Positions 18,001 through 27,000 of a stretch of 64,000 nucleotides of DNA are shown piece after piece. Source of the stretch: Deltaproteobacteria bacterium (GTDB lineage Bacteria; Desulfobacterota_D; UBA1144; Nemesobacterales; CSP1-2); contig JBQTHB010000003.1 in NCBI GenBank assembly GCA_052390235.1, positions 256,001-320,000 of the forward strand. Reading direction: 5' to 3'. The stretch's first letter is position 1. Every line of letters starts with the position of its first letter. Position numbers: made by a program.

Positions 18001-21000
18001 AATAAAACTCCCCGCCCCAGAATTAGCCCAGCGCGCACCCGCCAAGTTACGCATAGACAGGTTCGTCTTGTGCCGCCTCCTTCTGCGAGCGCACCCGGCT
18101 GAGGGCGGCAACCGGTGTGGCAAACGGCACGGACGTCCCGTTGTAGGCGCGAATCACATGGTAAGTGAGTAGGAGCTGCGCTAGGGCAAGCGGGTGGCTG
18201 TGGCGCGCCTCGACGCCGTCCTGATAAGAGCCAAGCTGCCGACCGGACAACGGACGCGGCTCGGGGAAATGAGCCAAAACGGCCTCTTCGAGTATCGTCG
18301 CACTCTCAGGGGTTACGCTTCCGTCAATCTCAAGAAAATCCGCCGGACGACCGCCGTCGCGCCCAAGCCTAAGGCGCATCCCAGGGGCGCGGGAATCATC
18401 AAACAAGTAACTCAGGTCAGGATGGGGTATCGTGGGGCGTAGCACAAAGCCGACGTTAAGGTCTCCATTCGCCCGCTCGGCGCTGATGCCTTCTGGGGGA
18501 TAGAACTTCATCACAATATCGGACGATTCCCTCTGGGGGCGGATGAAATCCTGCGAGTCGCCCTCGCGCTTGTCGAGTTCCGCCAGCACCTGCTCGACCG
18601 TGTAGCCGCGCTTTGTGGTGTCGCGCTTGACCTTCCATAGCCGCCGCAGGTCTTCAGGGGGGTCTAAATACACTTTTACGTCGTAGAATCGGCGCATCAC
18701 CGGGGAGTGGAAGCCAAGCAGTCCCTCGACGATGACAAACTCCTTGGGCTGAACGTACTCAGGGCGGATAATAGAGCCTGTGGAGTGGTCATAGACGGGT
18801 TTGAGAATCGGTTGCCCGTAGTGCAGTCGCTCCAGATGAAGCTCCAGAATGTCGAGGTAGTTGCAGTCCGGGTGGAGGGCCGTGATGCCGAGTTTCGCCC
18901 GCTCACGCCGGTCATATTTATGGTAGTCGTCGGTGCAGACGTGGGTAACGCGCTCCTCGCCAAGGAGGTTAACCAGCCCCCTCGTAATTGTGGTTTTGCC
19001 GGACGCGCTGTCGCCTACAATGCCAAGTATTATCGGTCGCTGCGGTGTGGTCATGTTGCGTCTCCTCGCTTCTCGGCGGGATTATTAATTATCCTCCGCC
19101 GACGCGTCAATTCCCCCTCGAAAAACACGGCTTTGTCGTATGTCGGCGGCGTCAATCCGCGCGAGTTCTCCTTTAGTAATCCGCCCCCCTCGGCTCACGA
19201 GGCGGCTCGCGTGCCGGAGCCTGAAGCGGTCAATTGCGTTGCGCACGCTTCGCCCGTTGGCAAAGTGGGGCTGACTAATCCTCAGCTGCAGATACTCCCG
19301 AAACGCCTCCCTCGCCTCGGCGTCGAAGCAGTACATCTGGCGCGCGAGGAGTAGCTCTCCAATGGCAGTCAGCTCGTCCATCGAGTAATCGGGAAAATCA
19401 ATGTGATGGGCGATGCGGGAGCGAAATCCTGGGTTATATTGAAAAAACGTGTCCATTCTATCTCTGTATCCGGCGAGGATTACAACTAAATCGTCGCGGC
19501 GGTTTTCCATCACCTGAAGGAGCATCTCAATGGCCTCCTGCCCGTAGTCGCGCTCGTTTTCAGGGCGGTACAGATAATACGCCTCGTCAATAAACAACAG
19601 CCCTCCGGCGGCTTTTTTGAGCGCCTCTTTGGTCTTCGGCGCAGTGTGTCCCACGTACTGCCCCACGAGGTCGTCGCGCGTTGCCACAACCAAGCGGTCG
19701 TGGCGCAGATACCCAAGGCTATGGAGAATTTTCGCCATCCTGAAGGCAACCGAGGTCTTTCCCGTGCCGGGGCGCCCTGTGAAGCTCATGTGGAGCGTCG
19801 GCGGGTCGGCGGCAAGCCCCGCCCTCTTGCGCAGGCTATCCACCAAGAGCAGAGCCGCAATCTCCCGAATGCGGGATTTCACAGGGGCAAGCCCGACTAG
19901 CTCGCGGTCTAGGTCGCCGAGAATATCGCCGATATTGGACGCGCGCCTAGTCTCGTCTATATCCAGATACAGCGTCTCGTTTTCTTCGGGCATTTCCAGC
20001 TCCGATACCGATTCCGCGTTTGTGCTTTTCATAAGGCCACTCCTCAGCTATTCATTCCGTCCCTCGTGAGCCGTCGGGCGCATCCCCCTGCCCCGAATTC
20101 CCCTCGCCAGATGCGCCGACGGTATTGCATTAATCCCCATAACGCCGCCCCGAGGGATTCACCGCAGCGTAGGAGCGTATCGTGTATCTGATTTGACGGT
20201 CTGCAAACTCCGTCCTCTCAACGTGAAATCCCGGCTCATCCTTCGGGCGGTTTACGATGAAACTCATCGCTGTCGTCTGCCTGCCGAGAGAGCGGTCGTA
20301 GCCGCTTACCTTTATATAGCGATTCGGGAAAGCCTCTCGACACTCGGCGATGGCGCGCATTACGGCGGCGTGGTCATTCATATCGAACATGGGCAGTCCC
20401 CACATCTCCCAGTAGGTGTTGCGCGGGTGAGGGTCGTCTGTATGCTCAATTGAAACTGGCCAGCCGTTTTTGAGGCAGTAGCGCACTTGATAGGCTATCT
20501 CCTCGTCGGAGAAATCGGGCAGATATGAAAATGTGCCTTGAGTGATTCTCATCGAAAGCCTCCTTAATCTATATGATTTACGCCGCAAGATTCCGAGCAG
20601 GCATCGTCTACACGCTCATCTGCGCATCCCGAACTACACGGTTAAGGTCAGCGACGCGTCCGGCACATCGGTTGACTCGAAGTCAAAGGAGACGTCTCTC
20701 CACACATCGAGCGCCTTGCGAAGCGCCGGAGACCAGCGCGCCGCCTTCTCCAGAATCTCAGTACCCTCGGCTAGGTAGTCGCGCCCTTCGTTACGCGCCT
20801 GAATCATCGCCTCCACCGCAACCCTATTAGCCGTAGCCCCGTCGGCGATTCCGTCCGGGTGTCCAATGGTGCCGCCGCCGAACTGAAGCACCACGTCCTC
20901 GCCGAGATAATGGAGGAGTTGGTGCATCTGTCCCGCGTGAATGCCGCCTGAGGCAACGGGCATCACGGCAGGAATGGAAGCCCAGTCCTGCTCGAAGTAC

Positions 21001-24000: not shown

Positions 24001-27000
24001 AAACAAGGGGCAAGATTCCTCTCTGCGTTCGGAATGACAGAGGGGAGAGGCTTGGATTGGAAATGACCCTTCATACCTAGACTCCGCTCAGGGCGCGGAT
24101 GAAATGGATTCCCGCTCAGGAGACTGCGGGAATGACACCGTGGCAATATCACGGAGGGGCAGAGAAATACCGTTGACATTTCGGTATTGTCCATGCGACA
24201 ATTGAGAATAATCTATATGTCAAGGAGGGAGTCCCCATGTTAAACAACCCATATTACTCGCAGGATGTCCACGGGCCCTTTGAGCTTTACGACATCGGCA
24301 ACCACACGCTCGAAGAAGGCGGCACAATACGGGGCTGCAAGCTCGCCCACGCGACCTTCGGCGCTCTGAACGCCGCAAAAGATAACGCCATCGTCGTTCC
24401 AACGTGGTACTCAGGCACGAGCAAAATCATGGAGCAGGTCTATATCGGAGCGAATCACGCCCTAAACCCAGAGAAGTATTTCATCATCGTCATAAACCAA
24501 ATCGGCAACGGGCTATCGAGTTCGCCGCATAACACGCCTTTTCCGGGCGGCATGGGCAATTTCCCCCATGTTAGAGTCGGCGACGACGTGCGCGCGCAAC
24601 ACAAGCTGGTTACGGAGAAATACGGCATCTCTAGCCTTGCCCTCGTCGTAGGAGGCTCGATGGGCGCTCAGCAGACTTATGAATGGGCAGTGAGATTCCC
24701 CGATATGGTAAAACGCGCCGCCCCGATAGCCGGAACTGCGCAGAACACAGAACACGATTTTCTCTATACGCAGACGCTGATGGACGCAATCACATCAGAC
24801 CCCGGATACAGGAACGGGTTTTATTCATGCAACACCGAGGTTCACGACGGATTAAGACGGCACGCCAAGATGTGGGCAGTGCTGGGTTGGAGCACCGAAT
24901 TTTTCCAGCAGAGGCGATATGCGGATTTAGGCTTCTCCTCGATGGACGATTTTCTCAACAGCTTTATGTTCTACTACTTCGGCTCGATGGATCCGAATAA
25001 TCTGCTGAGAATGGCGTGGAAGTGGCAGAGGGGGGACGTCGCCCGCAACACCGGAGGCGACCTCAAGGCGGCGCTCGGACGCATCAAGGCGAAGGTCTTT
25101 ACGATGCCGATTGACGAGGATATGTTCTTCCCGCCGAGGGACTGCGAAGCGGAGCAGAAGATGATTCCGAACAGCGAATTTCACGTGATAAAGAGCATTG
25201 ACGGGCATTTGGCGCTATTCGGCACTGACCCGAATTATATAGGGCAGGTTGACGCGTGCCTCAATAAACTGCTGGCGACTGCGGTTTAAATTTGGCAATT
25301 ACAAGCGGGCGCGGAAGGGCAGGGTCGGCGCTCTTCCGCGCCCGATACGCCCAATGGCACATACACGATTTGGGACACCCCACAATTAACTCCCGGACTT
25401 ATAATCGCGGGCTGAGAACTTGTGCTTAGCCATCAAGCGGTGAAACGTGCGGCGCGGCACTTTGGCAATTGCCGCCGCCTTGGTGATATTCCCCCTCGAT
25501 TCAATGAGATAATTTAGAATCTCCTGCCTCTCGTGGCGGTCAATGAAGCGGCCCTTATCCTCCAGAAATCCCCGTCCCGTCTCGCCGGCATCTATCGCCT
25601 GTACGTGGAACGGCAGATGCTCCGGCTCGATGGCGGAGGACACCGTCAGCACAACGGCCCTTTCTAGCACGTTTTCAAGCTCTCTGAGATTTCCGGGCCA
25701 TGAGTAGCCACGGAGATGATACATAGCCGCCGGGGATATTGCCTCGACCATCTTATTGACCTTAGCCCTAGCTTTGTCGAGAAAATGCACGGCGAGCCGG
25801 GGGACGTCCTCGATTCTCTCCCGTAGCGGGGGGAGAGCGATGGTAAAGGTATTGATGCGGTAAAAGAGGTCTTCGCGGAATTTCCCCTCGCGGATGGCGT
25901 ATTCCAAGTCCCGATTGGTGGCGGCGATGACCCTTACTGATATTCTCTTTGTGCGAACCTCGCCCACAGGGCGTATTTCGCCGGTCTGAAGGGTTCTGAG
26001 GAGTTTCGCCTGAGTGTCGGGGGACATATCGCCGATTTCATCGAGGAAAACAGTTCCGCCGTCGGCTTTTTCAAATAGCCCGATTCTATCCGAAGATGCG
26101 CCTGTGAACGCGCCGCGCTTGTAGCCGAAAAGCTCGCTCTCCAGCAGTCCGGCGGATAGGGCCGTGCAGTTGATTGTTACAAGAGGGAAGTTGCTAAGCG
26201 CGCTTCGGCGGTGAATGGCTCTTGCGGCGAGTTCCTTGCCCGTGCCGCTTTCGCCGCGAATCAGCACCGTGGTCGGAGTCGGGGCTACTTTGGCTATAAG
26301 CTCGGCGACCTGCCTCATTTTTGGATTATCGCCGATGACAAATTCCGAATCCGAGTTTTGCTCAAGCTCTCTGAGGGCGAGGCGGTAGCGCTCTTTTAGG
26401 GTTTTCGCCTGAGCCTGAGCCTCGATGAATTCCCAGAAAAGGCGCGCCCCCACGGGACCTATAAGCTCGGTTCGCTCGGATTTGAGGGAGTAAATCTCCC
26501 TGCAGGCTTCGGGGTTTCCAGTGGCATCAATTATGAGGTCGGCGGGTACGGAGGGAATGAGTTGCCTGTAGTCGGTCGTAACGGGAATCCCGAGTCCCTT
26601 TGCGATGACAAAGCCCACTGCCCGCTCGTCAATATCGGCGACCCCGACGACCTTAACCGCCGGGGCTTGGAAAAATAGATTGAGAAGCGCCTGCCCGCCC
26701 CTGCCCGCTCCAACTATTATGACTCGCTTCATCCGCTCTCCAAGAGAATTTATCTCGCTCTGAAATTTTCGCAGAGTAATTCCATCGAATATCAGGTCTA
26801 ATGCCCGCGTTGGGGCCAGGGGGCATCAAGGGGCCACCTGCAACGGTCAACCCCGCCCGACATTGACTCCATCTCGGCGAGGAGGTCGTCATAAAAGGCG
26901 CGCCACGCCGCAACCCCGGCATTCGGCGCCGGGAAATTTCCCGAAAAAAATAGCCACGCCTCTGGCATAGAATCGGTAGAAGAGGGACTAAACGGAAGCG

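Follow-up and report, generated by a model that had tools for sequence, protein, structure and literature searches.

A probable sigma-54 promoter and a Rossmann-domain enhancer-binding protein at a red-type RuBisCO operon

The Calvin cycle (CBB) operon in a 64,000-nucleotide stretch of a deltaproteobacterial genome (the window) is probably driven by sigma-54 RNA polymerase together with an enhancer-binding protein (EBP) that would act through an upstream palindrome and carry a Rossmann-type dinucleotide sensor. If this sequence-based reading is true, genes of CO2 fixation are under sigma-54 control with an NAD-binding-like sensor. We found no paper in the literature describing such control of RuBisCO, and the arrangement, as judged from sequence, appears to be undescribed so far. 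The operon and its surroundings are as follows:

15583..17739, minus: transketolase (tkt), last same-strand CBB gene (Transketolase_N, Transket_pyr, Transketolase_C)
18047..19054, minus: prk, phosphoribulokinase (Pfam PRK)
19085..20032, minus: cbbX, red-type RuBisCO activase (TIGR02880, 472 bits, cut-off 459)
20130..20588, minus: cbbS, RuBisCO small subunit (Pfam RuBisCO_small)
20634..22085, minus: cbbL, RuBisCO large subunit, red-type form I (Pfam, NCBIfam)
22308..23690, minus: TAL-like gene, first of the operon, encoding a 460-aa transaldolase-family protein (TAL_FSA, 90.6 bits)
23734..23748, minus: sigma-54 -24/-12 box TGGCAC-N5-TTGC, perfect match, TGGCACGGCAGTTGC
23869..23884, unstranded: putative enhancer (UAS), perfect palindrome GAGAC-N6-GTCTC, its centre 128 bp upstream of the box
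about 23941..24142, unstranded: copies of a dispersed MITE-like repeat, lying between enhancer and hydrolase gene (blastn, several contigs of the genome)
24237..25289, plus: MetX-like alpha/beta-hydrolase gene (Abhydrolase_1; NCBIfam PRK07581)
25386..26732, minus: EBP gene, 448 aa (ORF; Rossmann N-domain, linker helix, sigma-54 AAA+ and Fis-type HTH by Pfam)

Among the nearest solved structures of CbbL are 1bwv, 1bxn and 5nv3, which we take to be red-type form I RuBisCOs. The TAL-like protein scores far under the NCBIfam transaldolase cut-offs. A MEDS-HxlR regulator gene (14307-15308, Pfam) lies at the operon end. As noted earlier, the opposite-strand hydrolase (esterase) gene and a repeat separate the EBP gene from the promoter, with 1637 nt from the EBP stop to the box. 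Three intergenic queries together gave 99 blastn matches, and those listed were copies of the repeat. In 25 Acidobacteriota loci tblastn gave the hydrolase gene no match reaching 50 bits, and the gene is outside the regulatory module.

In a motif scan, TGGCACGGCAGTTGC was the sole perfect sigma-54 box in the whole window. It ends 43 nt before the ATG of the TAL-like gene at 23690 (44 bp in the earlier note), with a GGGAGA ribosome-binding site between, and transcription would start at about 23722, given the usual spacing between the -12 element and the start of sigma-54 promoters. We recovered the 16 perfect boxes previously counted in the 2.285-Mb genome, where simple arithmetic (4^-10 per position, two strands) predicts about 4-5. 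By a crude test against ORFs of at least 100 aa, nine of the 16 lie outside such ORFs and are followed, 25-298 nt on, by the start of a same-strand ORF; the cbb box counts as the tenth because its apparent ORF overlap is with a TTG-extended ORF. Two others are ambiguous and four lie inside long ORFs, a distribution close to the 13 intergenic boxes, 12 of them upstream of a gene, that had been claimed.

The genome encodes one RpoN and ten strong EBPs. The EBP near the cbb operon is built from these parts:

26457..26732, minus: N-terminal Rossmann-type domain, residues 1-92 (AF2 model, Foldseek, profiles, fingerprint conservation)
26346..26456, minus: long linker helix, residues 93-129, from sensor to AAA+ (DSSP on the model, H93-129)
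25839..26339, minus: sigma-54 interaction AAA+ domain, residues 132-298 (PF00158, 229 bits)
25425..25532, minus: C-terminal HTH, residues 401-436 (HTH_8; recognition stretch PRRTFHRLMAKH)

The AAA+ domain retains GESGTGKE, FLDEIG and GAFTGA, as read from the translation. Pfam places CoA_binding at 2-70 (24.9 bits), DapB_N at 3-83 (27.2 bits) and Sigma54_activat at 132-298, exactly where the earlier note had them, as well as GFO_IDH_MocA at 3-70 and AAA_lid_14. At 24.9-27.2 bits the N-domain matches are marginal, and the HTH_8 match at the C-terminus reaches 21.6 bits against a cut-off of 22. No NCBIfam equivalog matched the protein at or above cut-off, and the Pfam scan found neither a Response_reg domain in it nor a partner kinase. 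The receiver is thus replaced, as proposed, by a GxGxxG Rossmann domain, of about 92 rather than about 110 aa. The HTH recognition stretch, PRRTFHRL or TRRNFHRL, is common to the orthologues and unlike that of all nine paralogous EBPs of the genome.

Comparative support for a link between this protein and the operon comes from Acidobacteriota, and it exceeds what the earlier note gave. In 25 of 25 loci with downstream sequence, which are kin and represent few independent events, the EBP gene lies directly upstream of cbbL-cbbS-cbbX-prk on one strand; three more loci end at contig ends and were left out. This extends the synteny previously seen in seven of nine genomes. In one locus (L023), where cbbL is intact, the EBP reading frame appears cut short and frameshifted, which may be a long-read assembly error. 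All 25 loci carry a forward GG-N10-GC box 218-250 bp past the EBP stop, differing from TGGCAC-N5-TTGC by at most one mismatch in 20 and by two in five; in most of them TGGAAC stands at -24 instead of TGGCAC.

The palindrome had originally been picked by eye, and an unbiased search now recovers it. In a motif-free palindrome search of 26 upstream regions, GACA-N4-TGTC ranked first with 19 of 26, whereas 30 shuffles gave at most three. In 23 of the 26 regions an exact GAC-N6-GTC has its centre 121-132 bp upstream of the box; the window (128 bp) is one of them, and for Acidobacteriota alone the count is 22 of 25. A second copy near -210 occurs in 16 of the 26 regions; the window promoter has a single copy and is missing the distal one. 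In the 330-bp zone, forward boxes with at most one mismatch reach 2.42 per kb versus 0.033 per kb per strand elsewhere, and GAC-N6-GTC 5.45 versus 0.21 per kb, the background being the remaining 465 kb of the Acidobacteriota loci; the enrichment of box and palindrome is 26- to 73-fold. The genome of the window holds nine matches to G[AGT]GAC-N6-GTC[ACT]C and 637 box-like sites (at most two mismatches), yet a palindrome 40-300 bp upstream of such a site occurs only once, at the cbb promoter. The elements, their conservation, spacing and co-occurrence can be read directly from the DNA.

The phyletic pattern also links EBP and RuBisCO. Across 201 genomes of an Acidobacteriota order, the N-domain EBP and cbbL are found in the same two and neither in the other 199. 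Among 40 relatives of our genome there was no full-length EBP orthologue and no cbbL, which suggests transfer as a module, and in 120 genomes of its own phylum the N-domain is present in this genome alone. The lineage has probably gained the EBP, enhancer, promoter and cbb genes horizontally. For five orthologues, labelled Methylomirabilota, Rokubacteria or Binatia, the stretch right after the EBP gene holds GAGAC-N6-GTCTC-type palindromes and a TGGAAC-N5-TTG(T/A) element, with GT or GA at -12, and leads into an ICL/PEP-mutase-family (isocitrate-lyase-family) operon; cbbL is absent from the genomes of the orthologues that precede this operon. On this sequence evidence, the palindrome tracks the EBP, not cbb. 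As the distant orthologues would act on the isocitrate-lyase-family operon, the EBP family is probably a regulator of carbon assimilation and not RuBisCO-specific. The description 'regulator of RuBisCO' therefore holds for Acidobacteriota and the window clade, and fails for the other three phylum labels.

Sigma-54/EBP control of cbb, as first proposed, is thus supported by the presence of rpoN, an intact AAA+ domain with GAFTGA, co-occurrence in 25 of 25 loci and a unique pair of box and palindrome. Independence from CbbR is supported as well: the genome (99.8% complete) has no match to the LysR HTH_1 domain, and its sole LysR_substrate match is PstS.

The N-domain has the marks of a sensor. 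Its fingerprint is GAGRGG at 8-13, with Asp33 ending strand 2, an acidic residue that usually marks NAD(H) over NADP(H) binding. Model and structure search reproduced the earlier values closely (pLDDT 92.1 against 92.8; 27 Foldseek matches at E<=0.001 against 22). The matches, which include 4jn6_B (6.2e-5) and 1nvm_F (6.6e-5), are mostly NAD(P)-binding domains, the remainder being other nucleotide-binding alpha/beta folds; profile searches gave acylating acetaldehyde dehydrogenases (5e-7 to 3e-5) and Rex (8e-5). The family comprises 955 representative clusters, and the 81 long members scanned contained 47 histidine kinases, 14 GGDEF proteins, seven EBPs, one MCP, 11 with PAS only and one with nothing. 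Conservation is high at G8 (154/154), G10 (153/155), D/E33 (148/156), A44 (155/156), T71 (144/154) and G72 (146/154). By sequence, then, the domain is an input module that occurs widely in signalling proteins, and its dinucleotide-binding fingerprint is nearly invariant. From its modelled fold, its profile similarity to DmpF and Rex and the conserved GxGxxG...D, we infer redox or nucleotide sensing; NAD(H) is a serious candidate for the ligand, falling just short of probable. With five strands and no partner domain for catalysis, the domain may bind no ligand at all.

A homodimer model of the N-domain gave an ipSAE of 0.42 (best control 0.00), with at least 48% of contacts agreeing between runs and partner pLDDT of at least 82; residues 89-106 (last strand, helix start) form the modelled interface. 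In the tool's calibration the ipSAE mark is reached by 20 of 30 solved homodimers and one of 23 solved monomers, which holds only roughly here because our own alignment was used and NAD was co-modelled.

In the mechanism we propose, sigma-54 RNA polymerase would transcribe the CBB operon (TAL-like, cbbL, cbbS, cbbX, prk, tkt) from the box at 23748-23734, activated by the EBP (26732-25386), whose Fis-type HTH would contact the GAGAC-N6-GTCTC palindrome centred 128 bp upstream. The DmpF/Rex-like domain of about 92 residues would stand in for a phospho-receiver, joined by a helix of about 37 residues to the AAA+ ATPase. It is most likely dimeric, and binding of an NAD(H)-type ligand would change the dimer state and so permit or favour ring formation by the ATPase; RuBisCO expression would therefore follow reducing-power status without CbbR. 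Here we infer from sequence that the EBP binds the palindrome and that transcription needs sigma-54 in vivo, as well as the sign of control. The overlapping sigma-70-like site described below, the 1.6-kb gap between EBP and promoter and the single palindrome copy were counted against the mechanism.

The EBP might control the cbb promoter while its Rossmann domain senses NADP(H), CoA or acyl-CoA, another adenine nucleotide or a partner protein, or only dimerises. The best structural and profile matches are DmpF-type dehydrogenases, which use NAD+ and CoA in one site; there is the Pfam CoA_binding match (24.9 bits), the domain is short with its five strands, and the dimer model gives it a structural part. 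Input from partner proteins has a parallel in RtcR, an EBP with a Rossmann-like CARF domain that they can control, according to PMC9650030. Nevertheless, the glycine fingerprint and the strand-2 acidic residue hardly vary between kinases, GGDEF proteins and EBPs, and a purely structural domain would not need them, so that we hold these alternatives, taken together, to be rather unlikely.

Two further explanations question the control itself. A sigma-70-type sequence, TTGGCA-N16-TATAAT, overlaps the box (23749-23722) and matches 11 of 12 positions; both strands of the genome together hold only 87 sites of this quality. It could mainly drive the operon, the box and palindrome being relics of transfer and the displaced EBP no longer in control, as the intervening gene and repeats and the missing distal palindrome copy would allow. 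This is improbable, because box and palindrome are perfect, they are 128 bp apart where the other loci show 121-132 bp, the intact EBP ORF has lost none of its motifs, and the rearrangements did not break up the enhancer-promoter unit. Moreover, a similar AT-rich TATA-like sequence follows about nine of the genome's 16 perfect boxes, C2:482393 and C2:409958 among them, and may be typical of sigma-54 promoters here. That box, palindrome and nearby EBP are a matter of chance, with an unrelated regulator in charge, is very improbable: seven of 100 window shuffles contained at least one perfect box, and the MEDS-HxlR gene at the operon end could be such a regulator, but the three elements recur at fixed spacing in all 25 Acidobacteriota loci with the enrichment given above, box and palindrome combine once in the genome, and co-occurrence of EBP and cbbL is perfect across the 201 genomes.

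The proposed sigma-54 control resembles known systems in part. CbbR, like the window EBP, is a dedicated regulator encoded beside the RuBisCO operon, and NADPH and other metabolites influence it in some species, so the physiological logic, CBB expression tied to reducing power or metabolites, would be similar. However, CbbR is a LysR-family protein acting at sigma-70 promoters and usually divergently encoded, whereas the window encodes, in the direction of the operon, an AAA+ sigma-54 activator that has a Rossmann sensor. The cbb operons of Cupriavidus necator are likewise CbbR-dependent, not sigma-54-dependent as we propose for the window operon. Rex shares with the N-domain the use of a Rossmann domain as a redox sensor, not an enzyme; the profile match covers residues 84-148 of 5zz5_A (E 8e-5), and Pfam CoA_binding, matched at 24.9 bits, is the family to which Rex belongs. 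Rex, in contrast, is a small repressor of the winged-helix type that acts on sigma-70 genes, while the EBP combines an N-terminal Rossmann domain, a long helix and AAA+ for activation at a distance.

DmpF, PheF and AmnH (1nvm, 7z3s, 8ih7, 4jn6) match the N-domain best both by fold (E 6e-5 to 1e-4) and by profile (5e-7 to 3e-5, residues 1-94). We rejected the EBP as an enzyme of this acylating acetaldehyde dehydrogenase family, since it has the dinucleotide-binding half only, without a catalytic or dimerisation domain. NtrC1/DctD-type EBPs share the order of sensor, long helix, AAA+ and HTH; in them, receiver and coiled-coil linker keep the AAA+ module as an inactive dimer, and the modelled N-domain dimer suggests, by analogy, that ring assembly of our EBP is controlled in the same fashion. 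Unlike them, it has no Response_reg domain or partner kinase, and its input would be a small molecule. RtcR sets a precedent for EBPs that carry a Rossmann-like sensor (PMC9650030). Its CARF domain, however, belongs to another superfamily and its targets are RNA-repair genes. For genes of lithoautotrophy, a precedent is the HoxA/sigma-54 system of C. necator, in which hydrogenase expression is controlled via sigma-54 RpoN (PMC13725076).

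The predicted control of the cbb operon in the window by sigma-54 and by its enhancer-binding protein (EBP) is well supported in silico by the arrangement of the locus and by its comparison with other genomes. Every gene assignment in this locus is backed by Pfam and NCBIfam, and CbbX scores above its NCBIfam equivalog cut-off.

Features of the cbb locus and the adjoining hydrogenase cluster in the window
26732-25386, minus strand: EBP gene, 448 aa
24237-25289, strand opposite to the EBP gene and the cbb operon: MetX-like alpha/beta-hydrolase gene
~23941-24142: copies of a dispersed MITE-like repeat, with other copies on several contigs (blastn)
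23884-23869: perfect palindrome GAGAC-N6-GTCTC
23748-23734, minus strand: perfect sigma-54 box TGGCACGGCAGTTGC
23690-22308, minus strand: 460-aa transaldolase-family gene, 43 nt past the box, with a GGGAGA ribosome-binding site between them
ending at 15583, minus strand: cbbL, cbbS, cbbX, prk and transketolase genes, in that order, after the transaldolase-family gene
12731-13786, minus strand: [NiFe]-hydrogenase small subunit
10881-12689, minus strand: [NiFe]-hydrogenase large subunit
within 186-13786, minus strand: NifU-like, DUF5947, DUF6084, HycI, HypA, HypF and HypD genes, the rest of the hydrogenase cluster

The solved RuBisCO chains closest to the cbbL product of the window belong to enzymes that we take to be red-type form I, and the assignment of the window enzyme is supported to that level. 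Form IE RuBisCO is described in Acidobacteriota (n = 5 genomes) in PMC9561532. The [NiFe]-hydrogenase cluster (186-13786, minus strand) lies immediately downstream of the cbb operon and forms with it a hydrogen-plus-CO2-fixation island. Between the transketolase and hydrogenase genes there is a fusion of a MEDS sensory domain to an HxlR-type HTH (14307-15308, minus strand), a possible second regulator of this island. Upstream of the EBP gene, 26798-28446 (minus strand) holds ORFs of 106 aa and 432 aa that have no Pfam match, and a c-di-GMP-I riboswitch is found elsewhere in the window, at 41937-42056 (minus strand; 67.6 bits, gathering score 35).

The genome (2.285 Mb in 9 contigs, 99.8% complete) contains a single Sigma54_DBD gene, rpoN, and ten strong EBP genes. 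Perfect TGGCAC-N5-TTGC boxes occur 16 times, against about 4-5 expected by chance according to our own arithmetic. In a crude ORF test nine of them lie outside long ORFs and stand 25-298 nt ahead of an ORF on their own strand; the cbb box makes a tenth such case, two are ambiguous and four fall within long ORFs. Together, rpoN, the perfect box and the palindrome 128 bp upstream of it would be in keeping with activation by a bacterial EBP. A sigma-70-like sequence, TTGGCA-N16-TATAAT (11/12 match), overlaps the cbb box and counts against a sigma-54 promoter here. However, of the 16 perfect boxes about nine have a similar AT-rich, TATA-like stretch directly after the TTGC (TTGCccctattattatt and TTGCttataatattt, for instance), and so sigma-70-like matches over sigma-54 promoters may be a systematic feature of this genome.

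Sigma-54 control of the cbb operon can also be judged from other genomes. Scanning species-representative genomes with an alignment of the N-terminal domain of the EBP (N-domain) gave 60 loci, and in 25 Acidobacteriota loci (L002-L025 and L034), which are kin, a relatedness that weakens their weight as evidence, cbbL-cbbS-cbbX-prk come after an EBP orthologue in the same orientation; in three further loci (L026, L027 and L044) the contig edge precedes any downstream gene. The orthologues in the 25 loci show 46-59% identity in the N-domain and 67-78% over the remainder (best-matching segment). A forward GG-N10-GC box, usually TGGAACGGGAATTGC, stands 218-250 bp past the EBP stop codon in all 25 loci, with at most one mismatch in 20 and two mismatches in five; cbbL begins 69-582 nt beyond the box in 20 loci. 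Forward boxes with at most one mismatch reach 2.42 per kb in the 330-bp zone past the EBP stop codon, versus 0.033 per kb per strand in the other 465 kb of these loci. The placement of the EBP gene upstream of cbbL, as described in the earlier note, is thus borne out and extends to 25 Acidobacteriota loci, all of which carry the box. In five of them (L010, L011, L023, L024 and L025) genes for a CBS-pair protein and a pyridine-nucleotide-disulfide oxidoreductase are inserted between promoter and cbbL, about 250-2000 nt past the EBP stop codon (ORFs in the five loci, Pfam on the L011 pair), which is an additional tie of the promoter to pyridine-nucleotide chemistry. The EBP of L023 appears damaged, a point against the proposal; cbbL is likewise split in L003, which suggests assembly indels.

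The palindrome reported earlier at EBP-cbbL loci was recovered by a search that presupposed no motif. All inverted repeats with 4- or 5-mer arms and spacers of 0-12 were counted in the 240 bp upstream of 26 boxes, those of the 25 Acidobacteriota loci and of the window. The top repeat was GACA-N4-TGTC, found in 19 of the 26 regions, where the maximum in 30 shuffles was 3. In 23 of the 26, the window among them (128 bp), an exact GAC-N6-GTC has its centre 121-132 bp ahead of the box, and the other three (L006, L023 and L034) have only near matches at this position. GAC-N6-GTC reaches 5.45 per kb in the zone versus 0.21 per kb elsewhere. In 16 of the 26 regions it occurs again near -210. The search of the 240 bp preceding the window box gave no such distal copy, whose expected position falls within the dispersed repeat. 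Genome-wide, G[AGT]GAC-N6-GTC[ACT]C has 9 copies, only one of which is 40-300 bp upstream of a box-like site (n=637), and this sole pair is the cbb promoter. Sequence analysis of the window and of the comparison loci thereby confirms the joint occurrence of box, EBP and palindrome. We considered the same kind of control for the adjoining hydrogenase genes and rejected it, because the genome's only palindrome/box pair is that of the cbb promoter.

In L003 (11588-11865) and in 15 other Acidobacteriota loci, the sigma-54 box is separated from cbbL by a conserved leader of about 250 nt. Within it are the 8-bp hairpin GCCGGGC-CAACCA-GCCCGGC and, upstream, a similar element, CCGG...AACCAGCCGG; RNAalifold returned one 8-bp hairpin with almost no covariation. 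A leader peptide was rejected, there being no ORF in the box-cbbL gap conserved across the Acidobacteriota loci, as was a riboswitch in the leader, where no Rfam family reached its gathering score in the window and four loci.

Regulation of bacterial RuBisCO is taught as CbbR-based. No LysR-type HTH_1 was matched in the genome, and the single LysR_substrate match was rejected as a CbbR because it is the PstS of a pstSCA cluster. The independence from CbbR that had been proposed for this operon is therefore supported.

The motif also travels with the protein beyond RuBisCO. In five distant loci (L028-L031 and L035, titled Methylomirabilota, Rokubacteria and Binatia) an EBP orthologue stands between dnaB and an operon of two small Cys-rich ORFs, an ICL/PEP-mutase-family gene and an amino-acid permease gene. 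Palindromes of the GAGAC-N6-GTCTC type lie directly past the EBP stop codon in all five (L028:11300-12941, L029, L030, L031 and L035) and are followed by a conserved TGGAAC-N5-TTG(T/A), in which the -12 element is GT or GA, not GC. No cbbL was matched in two of these genomes. The recognition stretch of the HTH is PRRTFHRL in the window and in the cbb-linked EBPs and TRRNFHRL in the distant orthologues, and in the window EBP it differs from that of all nine paralogous EBPs of the genome. The EBP family therefore appears to be a regulator of carbon-assimilation operons, with RuBisCO targeted by one clade. The description of the protein as a RuBisCO regulator accordingly stands for the clade of Acidobacteriota and the window and fails for L028-L031 and L035, where the ICL/PEP-mutase-family operon takes the place of cbb.

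In a sample of 201 genomes of the Acidobacteriota order, the same two carry both the N-domain EBP and cbbL, and the other 199 carry neither. In the lineage of the window neither a full-length EBP orthologue nor cbbL was found in any of 40 relatives; within its phylum, this genome alone among 120 has the N-domain. One of 40 relatives has the [NiFe]-hydrogenase large subunit (88% identity), and GC over the cbb genes is slightly higher (0.57-0.59 versus ~0.53). The simplest reading of these sequence patterns is that EBP, enhancer, promoter and cbb genes were probably acquired horizontally as one unit. The hydrolase gene and the repeats would have been inserted later, leaving the 128-bp enhancer-promoter unit intact; blastn with three intergenic queries gave 99 matches in all across the genome, those listed being copies of the repeat. 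Transfer of such a module, with cbb beside a [NiFe]-hydrogenase cluster in an unrelated small genome, would amount to a one-step gain of regulated autotrophy.

An AlphaFold2 model of the N-domain from a 36-row alignment (pLDDT 92.1) has a five-strand beta-alpha-beta core (residues 1-92; listed strands 2-7, 26-32, 66-69 and 89-91) followed by a helix (93-129). The core, with GAGRGG at 8-13 and D33 placed by the model at the end of strand 2, has the marks of an NAD(P)-binding Rossmann domain. The likeness to such domains claimed before held up, as Foldseek gave 27 PDB matches at E<=0.001, led by DmpF-type acylating acetaldehyde dehydrogenases, GFO/IDH/MocA and PYCR1. A PDB profile search found DmpF-type dehydrogenases (5e-7 to 3e-5) and Rex (8e-5); matches to designed TIM barrels were discounted because they consist of repeated weak segments, and the ESM Atlas gave no usable match for residues 1-125. 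A full HMMER scan with the N-domain collected 955 representative clusters at E<=1e-3, 263 of them at E<=1e-10. Of the best 150 matches, the 81 scanned with Pfam (at least 300 aa, the six longest left out) comprise 47 histidine kinases, 14 GGDEF proteins, 7 EBPs, 1 MCP, 11 with PAS only (with respect to the five families listed) and 1 with none. With few exceptions the N-domain lies at the N-terminus, and some proteins carry it more than once; in three (P0015, P0018 and P0005) it occurs twice or thrice in tandem before the PAS/kinase part. Over 158 domain copies, G8 (154/154), G10 (153/155), D/E33 (148/156) and A44 (155/156) are conserved, as are G12, G13, G30, T71, G72 and W100. A dinucleotide-binding fingerprint under selection in non-enzymes is the pattern expected of a ligand-sensing domain. 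Where strand 2 ends in an acidic residue, NAD(H) is usually preferred to NADP(H), and D/E33 would thus point to NAD(H) as the candidate ligand.

Residues 1-133, modelled as a homodimer together with NAD, passed the ipSAE mark at 0.42 (best of three controls, 0.00), with runs agreeing in at least 48% of contacts and a partner pLDDT of at least 82. Among the solved structures used for calibration, 20 of 30 homodimers and 1 of 23 monomers reached that mark, a guide that is only rough here because an alignment of our own was supplied and NAD was included. The predicted interface is formed by strand 5 and the first part of the long helix. Ligand occupancy might alter this dimer and, through it, the way in which the ATPase ring assembles on the enhancer.

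We know of no account of how the red-type (IE-like) RuBisCO of soil Acidobacteriota and of other candidates for trace-gas chemosynthesis is switched on. The finding offers a complete predicted regulatory module, consisting of activator, 16-bp enhancer, -24/-12 promoter and candidate ligand class. Our tentative proposal, which we hold to be possible rather than probable, is that the N-domain, a truncated DmpF/Rex-like Rossmann domain with a signalling helix, is a widespread cytoplasmic sensor of NAD(H) state, carried by histidine kinases, diguanylate cyclases, a chemoreceptor-type protein and sigma-54 activators in many phyla; that its EBP form is a CbbR-free sigma-54 redox switch for RuBisCO in Terriglobales and for an ICL-family operon elsewhere; and that it moved between phyla as a regulator/enhancer/promoter/cbb unit. 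The family is large, mostly histidine kinases and GGDEF proteins, and because its 955 clusters have one Rossmann-type input domain in common, a single biochemical result would annotate many proteins. A search of the open literature, outside which most subscription journals lie, turned up no account of RuBisCO under sigma-54 control, nor of this sensor domain. Passages of PMC12316311 (a comparative sigma-54 regulon study), PMC13725076, PMC3404531 and PMC9561532 describe neither, and RuBisCO, Calvin, ribulose, cbb, carbon fixation and Acidobacteri are not mentioned in PMC12316311.

Among known systems, the EBP belongs with the sigma-54 activators. It has the sigma-54 interaction AAA+ domain (PF00158, 229 bits, residues 132-298), with GESGTGKE, FLDEIG and GAFTGA motifs in its translation, and a probable C-terminal Fis-type HTH, whose HTH_8 match of 21.6 bits falls just short of the cut-off of 22 in the window protein but is clear among family members (for example P0017, E 3.8e-13). 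All 26 NCBIfam matches are confined to the central domain, none at an equivalog cut-off. Response_reg, the mark of the NtrC type, gave no match in the EBP, residues 1-92 being the Rossmann domain, and HTH_1 and LysR_substrate, the marks of CbbR and the LysR type, are both absent. Rex, an N-terminal winged helix followed by an NADH-binding Rossmann domain, is alike in the Rossmann part only (E 8e-5), whereas domain order and output domain of the EBP differ and the Rex arrangement is not found in it. Similarly, DmpF-type acylating acetaldehyde dehydrogenases match residues 1-94 alone; their NAD-binding domain is followed by a catalytic/dimerisation domain with an active-site cysteine, which the EBP lacks, continuing instead with the helix and the AAA+ domain. 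In NtrC1 and DctD the AAA+ module is controlled by a coiled coil, an arrangement that the modelled dimer interface of the EBP may resemble. Sigma-54 activators are thus a known kind of regulator, of which the input domain and the target are new here.
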